In this document: one piece after another, positions 2,671 to 31,454 of the stretch | Numbering within the stretch: position 1 is the first letter of the stretch | Layout of the letters: the number at the start of each line of letters is the position of its first letter | DNA from: a plasmid | Assembly (NCBI RefSeq): GCF_988243305.1 | Contig: NZ_OZ547137.1 | DNA: 64,000 bases | Strand: one strand, 5' to 3' | Program-made: the position numbers and the translations under genes | The notes under the pieces: model-generated | Databases searched by the model: none | The model's input: the letters and a program-made list of their open reading frames with translations, nothing else | Told to the model about the DNA's origin: nothing

Positions 2671-2998
2671 GCAGACAGGTCATGCGGCTGTAATATATTT
2701 CAGACACCGAAATCCATCCCACAATTGCCCCCACAAAAAACACAACAGAAACAGAAAAGGTAAGACACAGCGAAACGACAATTTCCACAGGGCTGGCGGG
2801 ATAAAAAAGCCCCTGACGGATAAAGGGGATATTCAGGCTGACGATTATTCCCGTCGCGATGCCGGATATTCCGGCAATGAGTAACACCACCTGCTTATTT
2901 CGCACCTTTTTCCTCTCCGTATATCTGCAGAACGGTATCCATCCGCGCCATAAAACTGGCGGCATCCGTTGCCCCCTGCAAAAGCGGTAATGCCTCAA
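2618..2998 (-). CDS. trbJ: TrbJ-like small membrane protein (true start probably internal)
   Basis: ORF between trbB and trbF with a TM segment (VVLLIAGISGIATGIIV); overlaps neighbours, so the real start is likely an internal GTG. Confidence 0.4.
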   Translation of the reverse strand: MRHYRFCRGQRMPPVLWRGWIPFCRYTERKKVRNKQVVLLIAGISGIATGIIVSLNIPFIRQGLFYPASPVEIVVSLCLTFSVSVVFFVGAIVGWISVSEIYYSRMTCLHESSEISEGTYDERKNK

Positions 2999-21909: not shown

Positions 21910-22187
21910 GATTGCAACAATCAGGAGGGATATTCATCACATCCGGTCAGCAGATCGCCCGGATATCGAGGCCGGCACGCTTAATCTGACGCAGGAACTG
22001 TTTGAAGTGATCGGCTTCCGCAATGTTGATATGGCGGAACTGCGTATCCACACCCCGGCTGAGCGCGTAGCTATAGCTGAAGGCCATCTTTTCCGGTGTT
22101 TTTTTCCCTCCCGGCAACAAGAATCGTGTACGACGCGGTGTTAACGTGGATATTTCGGGTACTCATCCAGCTTTCTCCTCTCTCTGG

Positions 22188-22720
22188 TTTTCAGCCCCCA
22201 TCATCTGTTGAGTTTCGGGAGCCGCGGTTTTGACGTTTTGCGGGGACCTGCTCTTTGTTCCCTCCGGTATTCACCATCACCTGTTTGAGAACCTTCGCCG
22301 CAAGGGGCATCACTGCCACGGCCTGACGCACCTGTCCTGGGCAGAACGCAAAATTTTTTACCGGGTTTTGGGTAAAAAATTTTGTGGGCTGTTCATTTAC
22401 CCTGGACAGTCAGTGCGGCAGGTTGTGGCTGTATCAGCCCCCGGCGACAGGGGCTTAAACAGGTGAATGGCACCGGACACAACAACGGGCAGGGACCCGC
22501 CGCAACGACGTGAAGCGCGGTTTGCGAAACGGCGTTGCGCCTTACATCCCGGCGGCCTTTTGCCGGGATGCAGGGAGCGCAGGCCACGGCGCGACAGAGG
22601 CGGCGCGACCGGAACGGTCGCTGCAAGCCCGGGGTTTCGCGTCAGGGATGGAAGCCCGCCAGGGGGACGCCCGGAAAAGACACTGCCAGGAGAACAACAA
22701 AACAGACAATAATCAGGGCA
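22188..22720. repeat. Frpo/ssi-like single-strand promoter repeat, copy 1
   Basis: Starts CAGCCCCCATCATCTGTTGAGTTTCGGGAGCCGCGGTTTTGACGTTTTGCGGGGACC; near-identical to copies at 27508 and 30850. Confidence 0.6.
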
Positions 22721-23250: not shown

Positions 23251-23454
23251 GTTAATGAAAATTAACTTACTACGGGGCTATCTTCTTTCTGCCACACAAC
23301 ACGGTAACAAACCACCTTCACGTCATGAGGCAGAAAGCCTCAAGCGCCGGGCACATCATAGCCCATATACCTGCACGCTGACCACACTCACTTTTCCTGA
23401 AAATAACCCGCTCATTCAGGCTGTTTACGGGTAATCTGTGTGATTGTTGCCGCA

Positions 23455-24174
23455 TCACGCCGCCTCCCGGAGTTTGTTCGGCACCATCCACCGCTCCATC
23501 TCACGGACAGCGTGACCGGCCTCTCTTGCTGCAAGACTGGCTTCCGCAATAACCTGCCAGAACGGCATATCCTGCCACTGCCAGCGTTCCATTCCGGCCA
23601 GTGACGGGAAACGCTCGCCCCACAGCCAGAACAGGGTTTCCAGGTCATGCTCTGCCACCCGGTCACTCCAGCGTGCATGCCAGCTTCCGACTGTTTCCGG
23701 CGAATGGAATGCCAGTTCGATTTCAGCCTGAGCGACCAGCGCCTGGTACGCACGGGCTTTCTGCTCTGCCTCCCGTGCCTGCTGGCGGCTGTACTTCTGC
23801 ATGACCAGCGCGGATTTATGGCGACTGCGCTCCCTGACGCGGAACCGCACCGACGGAAACAACCGCTCTGCTGCATCACCGGGAAGGGGAAGGAGGCAGA
23901 CCTCGCCCTGTGTTTCAATCAGCACATCGACGGCATACAGCCACTGAAGACGGTTGCCGTGCAGTTCTTCTGCGGTCAGGGACGGCATGAAAAATCGCAG
24001 GTCAGACAGCGATATCCTGCGGCTTCCGTTCAGACAGCGGAAAAACGCCCCCGCATACGGATATTCCGCCAGCGTGTTACCCTGATGGCGGCGTTTTTCT
24101 GTCTCCGCCACCGCCTGCCATGCGGCCTGTTGCTCTGTGCAGAGGGGAACCAGTGCCTGTGAACGTACGCTCAT
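23455..24174 (-). CDS. psiA: PsiA
   Basis: 239-aa ORF immediately downstream of psiB, overlapping its stop. Confidence 0.85.
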
Positions 24175-24608
24175 GCCTGACCTCCTTCCGCCATCAGGAT
24201 ATGGATGATGTCATTAACGCTGTACCCCTGCGCATCCAGTGACGCCGCCAGTGCCAGTGAATGGCTGACGGCTTCCGGTGCAAACCGCCGCTGCACCTGA
24301 ACCACCGCAAACGGCTCACCACCGGCATTCACCAGAACCAGCACCCAGACCTGAGAGACATCGCCCGGTGAACATAACGCCAGGTGAAAACGTTCGTGGG
24401 CAGGCGTGAAACGGACCTGGACGGGGAAAAATCCGCCAAACTCGCTGCCGTACTCGCCGTTCATCGTCCAGTTGTCCGGCGCATCCAGTTCCCGCATCAC
24501 GGCGTGTGTCAGCTCACGACGTTCATCACTTCCGGCAGCCCGGATATCTTCATATTCCTGTGCGCTCATGGTCTGTAATACATTCAGGGTCAGTTCAGTT
24601 TTCATCAC
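24171..24608 (-). CDS. psiB: PsiB, plasmid SOS inhibition protein
   Basis: 145-aa ORF ([26 protein letters not shown]...); classic leading-region position. Confidence 0.9.
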
Positions 24609-24659: not shown

Positions 24660-26624
24660 TCAGGCGGCATCAGCCAGGTTATCGGTGCGTTCAGTGGCAT
24701 CTGTCTGTGGATGTGGTGCACACATCCAGCCTGGAACCCAGCGGTTGTCTTTCATATTGTGCTCTGCATGTTCAGCCGCATCACCTTTCTTCATCTTCTC
24801 CGCGTCCCGTGCGGCACCGGACAGCCCTGCCTCATTCAGGGCTGCGATAATCTGCGGCTTTTTCAGGTGTCCGAAGAAGTTTGCTTTTGTCGGCTGCCAC
24901 CAGTCACGCATGTGAAAGCCGATGGCGCTTTCCAGCGAGTCAAGCGGACTGCGTGACGTGTGACCACACTCGCGGGTCTGGACACCGTTAAGACTGCACG
25001 CGGTACAGAAGCTGAGCAGGGATAACAGCACCTCCTGGCTGAGTGACAGGAACGTCGTCATATCCCGTTCCCATCCTTCCGGCAGCAGGGCAGCAAAACG
25101 AGAGTGTTCTGCCATCAGCGCCATGAATGCGGCACCTTCCTTCCCCGACGGTGCATCGCTGGTCAGCGCATAATGCTCACATTCCAGGCGAATTCTGGCG
25201 GGACTACTATGCGCTTTGCTGCCAAACACATTCAGGCAGAGCGTCCATGCCAGCAGTGTCAGGGATTTGTCCGGTTGCTGCATCAGTGCCGCCTGGACTG
25301 CCAGCGTGCGTTCGGAAGACATTTTCGTCAGCAGTGGCAGACTGATTTCCTCCACTGACGCTTTTTCCTGCACCTGTTCCGTGCGGTCAGCGTCGTCAGC
25401 CGCATCATCCTCACTGCGTAACTGCACACCACGCTGGACACATACGTTTCCATAACGCCAGGACACCACCACTCCACCTCCGGCACGCATCTCCGGCGTC
25501 CACGCTCTGACCTTCGCCATGCAGCGCATCAGCTTCATTTCTGCTTCCAGCAGGTCAGATTCCTCACACTGGTTTTCCATCGCGTCGTAACGCGTCATCA
25601 GTTCGTTCAGGCGTTCTTCTTCCGCCTCCGTCAGCACCGCTTCCGGCTCCGGCAGACAGCGGTATGTTCCGGCATCCTCACGGCACTCACCGACTGGCTC
25701 CATGCGCCCGGCGCACCATTCCCAGCCTTCTGCTTCCCGAAGGTGTTCAGCAACAGCCTGGAGTTTTTCCAGCAGGGCGGCATCGAGCGCCACGCAGTCC
25801 ACATAGCCACCCTCGTCGTCGCTGAACAGGTCAGTGCGCAGTTCATCTGGCGAGAAGGCATCAGCCCCCACAAAGCGGAATTTACTGTTCCCCGCCACCG
25901 CCACTTCACTTTCGGTCACCAGACGACGAATGGTCTGCGCTTCCGGTTTACCGCCCCATCCCGACTGGCAGGCGGCTTCAAACACCTGCACCTGACGCGC
26001 GGTGTCGTTCTCCAGCGCCAGCGCCTGACAGTGTTCGGTGGTGATGCGGTCTTCTGCCAGCGCATCGAGGATGACAGGCGCAAGGTCAGCCAGTTTCAGC
26101 ATTCGCTGGACATGGCGGGGTGAATAGCCCAGCAAGTCACCGATTTGTGCAGGTGTTTTGCCTTCCTGCGCCATTGCGCGGAATCCGGCAATCTGTTCGG
26201 CAGGGTGCATATCCCGACGATGACCGTTTTCAGTCATTGATGCGGCAGTCGCCAGTTCCTGCGGGATGACCTTTACGCGGACAGGTCAGTCAGCCGGAAT
26301 GATGCCACGCTCTGCCAGCATGTTGAGTGCTGCCAGTCGGCGACCACCTGCGGCGACACCGTAACGGTCACCAGGCAGGGTATGCACGACCAGATTCTGC
26401 AACAGGCCAACGTCCTTAATGGACTCCGCCAGTTCGCTGACGGACTCTGCGGAATACGGCACCGTGCGCACATTCAGCGGTGATTTAATCAGTGAAGCCA
26501 GCGGCACACTCACTTCCTCCGTCTGCGCCAGCAGGGCAGACAGGACTGTTTCCTGCGTTTTTACAGATTTAAGGCTTGCTTTGCGGGTGGTTTCTGGTTC
26601 ACACTTCGTTACAGGCATAATCAT
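24660..26624 (-). pseudogene. ParB-like nuclease-domain protein interrupted by an in-frame TGA
   Basis: 112-aa (26286-26624) and 525-aa (24660-26237) ORFs are in the same frame, separated by one TGA at 26286-26288; N-terminus has a ParB-type motif (VAAGGRRLAAL). Confidence 0.6.
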
Positions 26625-26676: not shown

Positions 26677-26937
26677 TTACTTAAGAATCCCGAAATCCCT
26701 GATGTACCGGTTCATCCAGTACCCGGCACAGTCCTCAAAATTCCAGGAGCGCCAGATCAACGTGCCATCCTGACGGGCAACCAGGCGAAAATGCGTTCCC
26801 TGATCATCCTCGATAAAGACATTCCGGTACTGTGCGGCAACGGCTTCAGCCTGTTCGCGGGTAAAGGAGCCGTCAGGCAGCCCCTGAAATATTCTGAAAT
26901 ATTCGCTCATCCTCATCTCTCCGGTGATGCCCCGCAC
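26677..26937 (-). CDS. Small conserved leading-region protein (86 aa)
   Basis: ORF between ssb and the ParB-like gene. Confidence 0.4.
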
Positions 26938-26965: not shown

Positions 26966-27487
26966 TCAGAACGGAATGTCGTCATCGAAGTCATACGCGG
27001 GTTCAGACGGCTGCTGAGGCTCCGGCTGCGCGGCCTTACGTCCACGGCCTTTCGTTTTCGCGCCACCTTTTTTCGTCGCGTCAGCACTCTGTGGCTGCCC
27101 ATTCTGCTGAGGCTTCGGTTGCGCCTGAGCGTTCTGCTGTGGTGCACTCCCCAGCATCTGCATGGTGCCCGTGGTCTTAACAAGAATTTCAGTGACGTAA
27201 CGGGTGATACCGTTATCTTCCCAACTACGGGTACGGAGTTGCCCCTCGATGTAGACCTGCTCGCCCTTGTGCAGATATTCACCGGCCACTTCCGCGAGCT
27301 TGCCGAACAGCACCACGCGATGCCATTCTGTCTGCTCCCGAATCTCCCCCGTCTGTTTGTCACGCCAGCTTTCTGACGTAGCCACCTGCAGGTTTGCCAC
27401 TGCGCCCCCGTTGGGGATGTAACGGACTTCCGGATCATTGCCCAGACGACCGACAAGAATGACCTTGTTAATGCCACGAACTGCCAT
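26966..27487 (-). CDS. ssb: Plasmid single-stranded DNA-binding protein
   Basis: [35 protein letters not shown]-fold N-terminus, Gln/Pro-rich linker, acidic DDDIPF tail. Confidence 0.92.
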
Positions 27488-27507: not shown

Positions 27508-27962
27508 TGTTTTCAGCCCCCATCATCTGTTGAGTTTCGGGAGCCGCGGTTTTGACGTTTTGCGGGGACCTGCCTTTTGTTCCCTCCGGTATTCACCATC
27601 ACCTGTTTGAGAACCTTCGCCGCAAGGGGCATCACTGCCACGGCCTGACGCACCTGTCCTGGGCAGAACGCAAAATTTTTTACCGGGTTTTGGGTAAAAA
27701 ATTTTGTGGGCTGTTCATTTACCCTGGACAGTCAGTGCGGCAGGTTGTGGCTGTATCAGCCCCCGGCGACAGGGGCTTAAACAGGTGAATGGAACCGGAC
27801 ACAACAACGGGCAGGGACCCGCCGCAACGACGTGAAGCGCGGTTTGCGAAACGGCGTTGCGCCTTACATCCCGGCGTCTTTTTGCCGGGATGCCGGGAGC
27901 GCAGGCCACGGCGCGACAGAGGCGGCGCGACCGGAACGGTCGCTGCAAGCCCGGGGTTTTCA
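27508..27962. repeat. Frpo/ssi-like single-strand promoter repeat, copy 2 (upstream of ssb)
   Basis: About 450 bp matching copies 1 and 3 up to the GGGGCTTAAACAGGTGAATGG...CGCTGCAAGCC block. Confidence 0.6.
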
Positions 27963-28140: not shown

Positions 28141-28186
28141 GGAAAAAGAAGAGCAGTAGCAGTAGCAGTAGCAGTAGCAGTAGCAG
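28141..28186. repeat. Hexanucleotide microsatellite (AGCAGT)n
   Basis: About six tandem units read directly from the sequence. Confidence 0.8.
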
Positions 28187-30619: not shown

Positions 30620-30849
30620 AAATGGATTCCTTATGACAGTTTGGTAACAGTGCCTTAAAGACTGGTTGCACAGTCTCTTCGGCGTGGATTAAGCAGGTCC
30701 CTGACCTGCTTTTTTCATATCTGCGTCTGACGTTCTCCGGTGTATTCCTCCTTCTGTTCCTGCGTTCTCATTACCTGCCAGCAGGATGCTGACAGAACAC
30801 ATAAATGCGTATTGCCGGAGCCTGAAATAAATCCTGATTTTTAAAGAAC

Positions 30850-31380
30850 ATCACCCGTTGAGTTTCGGGAGCCGCGGTTTTGACGTTTCGCGGGAACCTG
30901 CTGCTGTATTCCCTGTGGTATGAACTTCACCCGTTTGAGAACCTTCGCCGCAAGGGGCATCACTGCCACGGCCTGACGCACCTGTCCTGGGCAGAACGCA
31001 AAATTTTTTACCGGTTCTTGGGTAAAAAATTTTGTGGGCTGTTCATTTACCCTGGACAGTCAGTGCGGCAGGTTGTGGCTGTCTATGCCCCCGGCGACAG
31101 GGACTCATACGGGTGTGTGGCACCCGGCAGGCAATGAGCAGGGACCCGCTGCAACGACGTGAAGCGCGGTTTGCGAAACGGCGTTGCGCCTTACATCCCG
31201 GCGTCTTTTTGCCGGGATGCCAGGAGCGCAGGCCACGGCGCGACAGAGGCGACGCGACCGGAACGATCGCTGCAAGCCAGGGTTTCGCGTCAGGGATGGA
31301 AGCCCGCCAGGGCGGAGACAGCTTCGCTGGCTCCGTTCACGACAGCCCGCCCCGCCAGGGGGACGCCCGGGAAAGCCATA
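30850..31380. repeat. Frpo/ssi-like single-strand promoter repeat, copy 3
   Basis: Same core as copies 1 and 2; ends in a purine-rich GAAGAG tract (31385-31430). Confidence 0.6.
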
Positions 31381-31454
31381 AACAGGAGAGGAACGGAAAG
31401 AAGAAGAGGAAGAAGAGGAAGAGTAAGCGCACCGTGAAGGACGTGGAGTAAAAA

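Follow-up and report, generated by a model that had tools for sequence, protein, structure and literature searches.

The leading region of plasmid F encodes a ParB-like protein, YfjB, whose gene is the counterpart of parB2 in pED208 (Al Mamun et al. 2021, PMC8406263) and has lately been renamed herB, its product being described as a "host expression reprogrammer" (Virolle et al., bioRxiv 2026, PMC13370423). HerB consists of a CTP-binding domain, D1 (residues 1-136), with Box II at G91-A97 and Box III at M128-L132, followed by the HTH domain D2 (residues 137-235), D3 (residues 238-417), and a new dimerization domain, D4 (residues 418-652) (PMC13370423). Residue R94 is required for CTP binding and focus formation, and E130, in Box III, is a Mg2+ ligand; the R94A, E130A, and HTH mutants and removal of the C-terminal domains each abolish HerB foci (PMC13370423).

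Several studies have addressed what plasmids lose with this gene. Deletion of parB2 from pED208 does not lower transfer frequency (PMC8406263), deletion of herB from F leaves conjugation frequency unchanged (PMC13370423), and genes downstream of Frpo2 seem dispensable in plating assays (PMC9849209). The herB deletion incurs an acquisition cost of roughly 10% and is defeated in multi-day laboratory competition (PMC13370423). When ESBL plasmids were evolved experimentally, a parB-like gene of the leading region repeatedly acquired deletions, frameshifts, and premature stops, and engineered knock-outs of that gene transferred at a higher rate in one clinical strain but not in another (10.1101/2022.07.06.498992).

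The herB locus and its interrupted reading frame

We analyzed a 64,000-nucleotide stretch of plasmid DNA (RefSeq assembly GCF_988243305.1, contig NZ_OZ547137.1), referred to here as the window, which is an IncF plasmid segment with tra genes, the oriT side, and the leading region. Translation of the minus strand between 24660 and 26660 in a single frame yields ParB-like sequence that runs through except for a single internal stop. This confirms a first-pass annotation in which a 112-aa ORF and a 525-aa ORF of one frame were described as split by a single TGA; the two lie on the minus strand at 26286..26624 and 24660..26237. The translated residues around the stop are ...AERGIIPAD*PVRVKVIPQELATAASMTENGH..., or, over a longer span, ...NMLAERGIIPAD*PVRVKVIPQELATAASMTENGHRR.... 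The two ORFs are not chance neighbors, since both halves align gaplessly to one 652-aa protein of plasmid F; the conceptually repaired protein matches YfjB of that plasmid (WP_000117173.1) over 652 codons, with no gaps and 90.8% amino acid identity. The biological start of herB is probably the ATG at 26618, which is preceded at 6 nt by an SD-like AAGGGG and is the start chosen by PGAP in sister records, so that the N-terminal fragment comprises 110 residues rather than 112. The features of the locus are collected in Table 1.

Table 1. Features of the herB locus and its neighborhood (window coordinates; HerB residue numbering)
Feature	Position	Strand	Basis or remark
Frpo/ssi-like repeat upstream of ssb	27509..27959	.	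Repeat copies found
ssb (plasmid), first gene of the cluster ssb-yfjA-herB-psiB-psiA	26966..27487	-	
DUF905 gene (yfjA position in F), directly upstream of herB	26677..26910	-	
herB (yfjB/parB2) pseudogene, 652 codons plus terminal stop, one TGA inside	24660..26618	-	Gapless against F WP_000117173.1; PGAP label
N-terminal fragment, 110 codons: truncated ParB N-terminal (CTP-binding) domain, Box II present, Box III absent	26289..26618	-	
G69D (GGC>GAC), derived, arose after the TGA	26412..26414	-	Window, pNORD58_1, and CP196121.1 plasmid only
Box II GGRRLAA (G91-A97, including R94), 5' of the stop	26328..26348	-	Identical to F
Premature opal stop TGA, codon 111 (113 counted from the first ATG)	26286-26288	-	
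16 in-frame sense codons PVRVKVIPQELATAAS, from the TGA to the first ATG of the downstream ORF	26238..26285	-	
525-codon downstream ORF: D1 tail, D2 HTH domain, D3, D4 dimerization domain	24660..26237	-	
Box III MTENG (M128-L132)	26223..26237	-	Identical to F; 525-aa ORF starts exactly at M128
psiB, 54 nt downstream of herB, own SD AGGGAG	24171..24605	-	
psiA, intact 239-aa ORF	23455..24174	-	

The earlier description of the gene as ParB-like is borne out by domain searches with the conceptually repaired protein, in which Pfam PF02195 (ParB_N) matches residues 43-133 at 33.3 bits (cut-off 26.3) and PF17762 (HTH_ParB) matches residues 138-226 at 34.9 bits (cut-off 22.6), both above their gathering cut-offs. 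The CTP-binding motifs Box II (GxxRxxA) and Box III (ENxxR-like) are both present, one on either side of the stop. RHVQRMLK in the HTH domain is the same in the window and in F HerB. Canonical ParB/Spo0J/Noc CTPases have homologous CTP-binding and HTH domains (for Thermus Spo0J, PDB 1vz0, E = 1e-17 over residues 27-203), and solved Spo0J/ParB/Noc structures match the repaired protein over residues 27-222 only. The C-terminal 420 residues of the herB product, which make up D3 and D4, are in contrast unrelated to the C-terminal domains of canonical ParB proteins. A sequence search of the PDB returned canonical ParB/Spo0J/Noc structures only and no HerB entry.

With F HerB, the window allele shares its length, Box II, Box III, the RHVQRMLK residues, and the gene order behind a Frpo-like repeat; it differs in that codon 111 is TGA and not TGG, so that no full-length protein is encoded, and in G69D. 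The four-domain architecture of about 652 residues and the leading-region synteny of the HerB family are thus both found here, whereas an uninterrupted frame is not. The order ssb-DUF905-herB-psiB-psiA behind the Frpo/ssi repeat is as in plasmid F, and the repeat is presumed to be the single-strand promoter region that would drive the cluster in new transconjugants (PMC9849209).

Ancestral codon and distribution of the TGA allele

Codon 111 is TGG in pAA of E. coli 042 (97.7% DNA identity), in plasmid F, and in a 99.3%-identical sister allele. Comparison with intact homologues, the check proposed in the first-pass annotation, places Trp at the site in 120 of the 120 closest intact proteins. 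By these alignments, the lesion is W111*, a TGG-to-TGA change through a single G>A transition on the coding strand; the plus-strand complement is TCA, and the base after the TGA is C. Trp at this site is specific to HerB, since Spo0J has an aligned Val where herB has Trp.

Other carriers were sought with a 55-mer that has the mutated base at its center, such that every 28-nt megablast word must include that base. The TGA 55-mer matched 11 of 5,426 complete E. coli genomes, in every case on a plasmid and with 100% identity over the 55-mer, and two more plasmids were matched in PLSDB, which brings the number of other complete IncF plasmid records with this stop to 13. Among complete E. coli genomes that carry herB, 11 of 2,886 hold the TGA allele, and the majority of herB copies are intact. 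The carriers come from four continents (Germany, Ireland, Brazil [four], Sweden, USA [two], Canada, Galapagos, Malawi, and Laos), and their sources include humans (among them a healthy student in the USA), a Canada goose (USA), and Galapagos seawater. The TGA is confined to one clade whose members are at least 99.8% identical. Among public proteins, the exact 110-aa product is found on 199 contigs in a G69 form and on 126 contigs in the D69 form of the window (about 325 in total), and the exact product of the 525-aa ORF is found on 64 public contigs.

These counts bear on two of the three explanations that the first-pass annotation had offered for the stop, which were a recent nonsense mutation, a sequencing error, and translational readthrough. 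That the difference is one of a single base is all that speaks for a sequencing or assembly mistake in the window. Against it, 13 further complete records, from separate projects of independent laboratories, have the identical base, and so do hundreds of contigs; one of the complete records, BR1220-p104, is a hybrid assembly of Illumina and ONT reads. The window is also not a simple copy of its closest record, since 5 SNPs and 4 indels separate the two across 24 kb. An error can be excluded. The nonsense mutation is instead upheld by the ancestral TGG, by the Trp in every one of the closest intact homologues, and by the restriction of the TGA to a single clade; W111* has a single origin, within one sub-lineage of IncFIA/FIB(/FII) plasmids, and has since been passed on by descent.

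W111* was already known in the sense that PGAP labels the RefSeq copies of the identical allele as a pseudogene of a "ParB/RepB/Spo0J family partition protein" with an "internal stop," and a mutation of this kind is an ordinary event. Taken with the evidence below, we consider it very probable that W111* is a genuine loss-of-function nonsense mutation in herB and that the gene is now a drifting pseudogene passed on by descent.

Effect on the product and secondary decay

The stop falls inside ParB_N, past Box II of the CTP-binding domain but ahead of its Box III, and translation would end there after 110 residues. The 110-aa product is without Box III (including E130), the HTH, D3, and the dimerization and nucleoid-binding domain D4, all of which have been reported as needed for foci, and from this we infer, in a straightforward way, that HerB activity would be lost in the W111* allele. 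Translation of the 525-codon ORF is unlikely, except through readthrough or reinitiation.

Changes that followed the TGA were counted within the 13-record TGA clade, where there are four substitutions. One is G69D, in the window and two sister records; A157V is present in the other ten records, and one change is synonymous. In 6 of the 13 carriers, E479 has changed from GAA to TAA, which places a second, strong stop inside the D4 dimerization core, while in the window this codon (25182-25184) is still GAA. The ratio of nonsynonymous to synonymous changes is 3:1 after the TGA, compared with 9:32 between the lineage and pAA (Fisher p=0.052, a contrast that rests on four substitutions). This difference, only marginally significant and in very small numbers, is suggestive of decay after the stop.

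The nearest TGG sister allele is itself disabled, independently, by an 8-bp tandem duplication (ACTGCTGG x2), which shifts the frame at about codon 454. Together with W111* and E479*, this makes at least three disabling events within a small sub-lineage. In a wider sample, taken as 60 evenly stepped records among the top 5,000 PLSDB matches, we found further independent lesions: Q151* (CAG>TAG), Q442* (CAG>TAG), and a frameshift close to codon 53, as well as a 50-bp palindrome of IS10-like ends, with a 9-bp target duplication, that breaks herB in one class of plasmids. We conclude that herB is recurrently disrupted in natural IncF plasmids, though most copies are intact. One PLSDB hit that appeared as "unannotated" proved to be an unannotated record in which the gene is intact.

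UGA is the leakiest stop codon, and in E. coli tRNA-Trp misreads it (PMC5289835). Readthrough in K-12 reporters amounts to about 2% at 37 C, rising to about 4% at 25 C (PMC10570021). W111* might on this basis be a leaky hypomorph, in which misreading by tRNA-Trp restores the wild-type residue and a few per cent of full-length HerB still matters. The UGA with C at +4, the ancestral Trp, and a downstream ORF that is still open in the window all fit this reading, which we nevertheless judge unlikely. The strong TAA in 6 of the 13 carriers and the accumulation of nonsynonymous changes speak against selection on the downstream ORF, and a CTP-dependent, dimeric, foci-forming protein would probably not function once its dose has dropped 25- to 50-fold. 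The readthrough values measured in K-12 may moreover exceed those of wild strains; E. coli K-12 carries a weakened RF2 variant. Compared with basal tRNA-Trp readthrough of UGA in E. coli, the codon and the near-cognate tRNA are the same and the inserted residue would be the ancestral one, whereas herB gives no sign of selection or regulation at the stop and its downstream decay argues against either.

Two features of the window allele serve as a counterpoint to its reading as a null. With C as the next base the UGA terminates weakly, and as tRNA-Trp is its natural misreader, a few per cent of ribosomes could produce full-length protein that carries the wild-type residue; the window allele also does not yet have the second stop.

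A split gene, in which the 525-aa ORF reinitiates at M128 and, whether alone or beside the 110-aa peptide, yields a functional HTH-D3-D4 protein, is still less probable than the leaky allele. Its ATG lies 16 codons past the stop, with no ATG, GTG, or TTG among the 16 in-frame codons between (26238-26285), and nucleoid association is retained by HerB constructs reduced to D3D4 or to D4 (PMC13370423). Against this, no Shine-Dalgarno is suitably spaced from the M128 ATG, the closest AGGA being 19 nt upstream of it, and E479* truncates the dimerization domain in 6 of the 13 carriers. The reinitiated product would also be without Box I and Box II, including R94, a residue whose mutation abolishes foci (PMC13370423).

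Programmed recoding, whether as a selenocysteine codon or as a regulated readthrough signal, has in its favor that the codon is UGA and that the frame continues, and nothing else. The ancestral residue is Trp rather than Cys or Sec, and none of the 120 closest homologues has the stop. A stimulatory structure or SECIS element was sought by folding 85 nt that span the stop and the sequence 3' of it. Their minimum free energy of -25.8 kcal/mol (z = -1.37; shuffle mean, -21.8) was no better than that of shuffled sequences, 15 of 200 of which folded at least as well. With decay visible downstream, we place recoding at the very bottom of the range of likelihood, and a selenocysteine or programmed readthrough function is effectively refuted by the lack of a significant fold, the Trp ancestry, and a stop that is not conserved. 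The suggestion in the first-pass annotation that the TGA is a readthrough site was set aside as a programmed feature on the same grounds, and by the second stop in 6 of the 13 carriers; the recent nonsense mutation alone among its three proposals was retained.

Persistence of the allele in IncF plasmids

The loss-of-function reading of W111* leaves two ways in which the allele may have spread: it may be neutral or slightly deleterious and carried along by hitch-hiking, or it may be favored in particular hosts. Plasmids that carry it would remain successful, since herB is not needed for conjugation itself. It is possible that the loss of HerB is tolerated or that it brings a host-specific advantage. 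As a counterpoint, the acquisition cost of about 10% and the defeat in competition of the HerB deletion would not, taken alone, predict the global spread of a null allele.

The ESBL plasmids of Benz and Hall offer the closest experimental likeness, with the same type of lesion (a SNP that creates a premature stop) at the same position in an ssb-parB-like-psiB-psiA operon. Those mutations differ from W111* in that they originated in serial passage, in other plasmids, and in a 2,049-bp gene, whereas W111* is a natural allele fixed in a global IncF sub-lineage. Under an adaptive, host-specific loss, removal of HerB, possibly together with lower psiB/psiA expression through polarity, would raise transfer or cut cost. 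We hold this explanation only tentatively, as a minority view. It is favored by the repeated hits to the parB-like gene in ESBL plasmid evolution and the higher transfer of knock-outs in one clinical strain (10.1101/2022.07.06.498992), by the three or more disabling events in the sub-lineage (W111*, E479*, and the 8-bp duplication) with several more in other IncF plasmids, and by the presence of the allele on about 325 public contigs. It is countered by the small share of herB-carrying complete E. coli genomes that hold the allele (11 of 2,886, with most copies intact), by the defeat of F without herB in serial conjugation competition (PMC13370423), and by the different backbone of the Benz and Hall plasmids; the allele could also have spread by hitch-hiking, on a successful host clone or on cargo genes. 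Adaptive loss bears on why the allele spread and does not conflict with herB being a pseudogene.

A more specific form of this idea, that W111* is a naturally selected, host-specific attenuation of HerB, either null or about 2% leaky and perhaps combined with polarity on psiB/psiA, seems to us slightly more doubtful again. If it were true, in some E. coli lineages W111* would boost transfer or reduce cost, as a natural parallel to the findings of Benz and Hall, and adaptive loss would repeatedly strike herB among IncF plasmids. The allele has modest value as a natural experiment on HerB, a newly characterized protein reported to reduce the cost of plasmid acquisition. A null allele in at least 13 complete plasmids, with independent disruptions elsewhere, suggests that the gene can be dispensed with under some conditions, or that losing it is sometimes favored in the wild, and the W111* plasmids are ready-made material for testing both.

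Effects on the rest of the cluster were considered as well. The premature stop could, hypothetically, exert transcriptional polarity on psiB and psiA. With Rho-dependent polarity on psiB in view, the 1.6-kb untranslated stretch after the stop was scanned for C-rich, G-poor windows; the best had only 36% C and 26% G, and the stretch is G-rich overall. A wider decay of the operon that would take in psiA was rejected: PGAP labels psiA as "frameshifted" in this lineage, yet psiA of the window is intact at 239 aa, the length of PsiA of pAA, and the label looks like an annotation artifact.

Further lesions in herB

Loss of an intact herB reading frame recurs beyond the premature stop (TGA, W111*) carried by the window. 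A second nonsense codon, E479 GAA>TAA in the dimerisation domain D4, is present in 6 of the 13 other plasmids that carry the TGA (loci L006, L007, L013, L014, L015, and L017); the window still has GAA at the equivalent position. The closest allele retaining TGG, L008 (NZ_JBSTQM010000002.1), is frameshifted at codon ~454 by an 8-bp tandem duplication (ACTGCTGG), an independent inactivation within the same sub-lineage as the TGA allele.

In one class of plasmids from E. coli, Klebsiella, and Salmonella, a different lesion breaks herB near codon 461. Here, two IS10-like terminal repeats (CTGATGAATCCCCTAATGATTTT...) make up an inserted 50-bp perfect palindrome, which is bordered on both sides by a 9-bp duplication (CGCTCTGCC). 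This arrangement looks like an IS10/Tn10 footprint or a mini-element.

The herB start codon and psiA

The 5′ end of herB contains two in-frame ATG codons with a spacing of three codons, and a Shine-Dalgarno-like AAGGGG matches the second of these (26618). Because this sequence suits the ATG at 26618, the mechanically called 112-amino-acid open reading frame is too long by two residues for the N-terminal fragment.

The psiA reading frame in the window is intact and encodes a 239-amino-acid PsiA, the same length as PsiA of pAA, the plasmid of E. coli 042. PGAP nevertheless calls psiA frameshifted in the closest sister plasmid, CP196121.1, although the DNA is identical to that of the window. Compared with pAA, the sequence immediately following psiA has been rearranged or deleted, a possible reason for this call.

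Repeats and mobile elements

Three direct repeats of ~450 bp lie in the leading region, two of them 99% alike and the third about 91%; presumably, these are Frpo/ssi single-strand promoter elements. In one sister record, both 99%-alike copies contain 206-bp parts to which PGAP gives the label "single-stranded DNA-binding protein, frameshifted," apparently a misannotation of noncoding DNA. A perfect AGCAGT array is length variable, since it is 12 bp (two units) shorter in CP196121.1.

Downstream of the leading region, the presence of an IS66-family element together with genes for a PD-(D/E)XK nuclease, a recombinase, and a group II intron reverse transcriptase (ltrA) suggests an accretion of mobile elements adjoining this region. 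In the sister record, the annotation gives the tnpC gene of the IS66-family element as frameshifted.

Coordinates of the features described (window positions unless a record is named)
Feature	Position	Strand	Remarks
psiA	23455-24174	minus	region concerned, 23412-24174
herB codon 479 equivalent	25182-25184		
herB in-frame ATGs	26618-26624		
~450-bp direct repeats	22187-22637; 27509-27959; about 30849-31316		three copies
AGCAGT array	28152-28186		5.8 units; flanked by methyltransferase gene and Frpo-like repeat
IS66-family element, PD-(D/E)XK nuclease, recombinase, ltrA	about 31400-38700		
herB interruption	L023 (NZ_CP010174.1), about 2884-2942		likewise in PLSDB matches H169-H172
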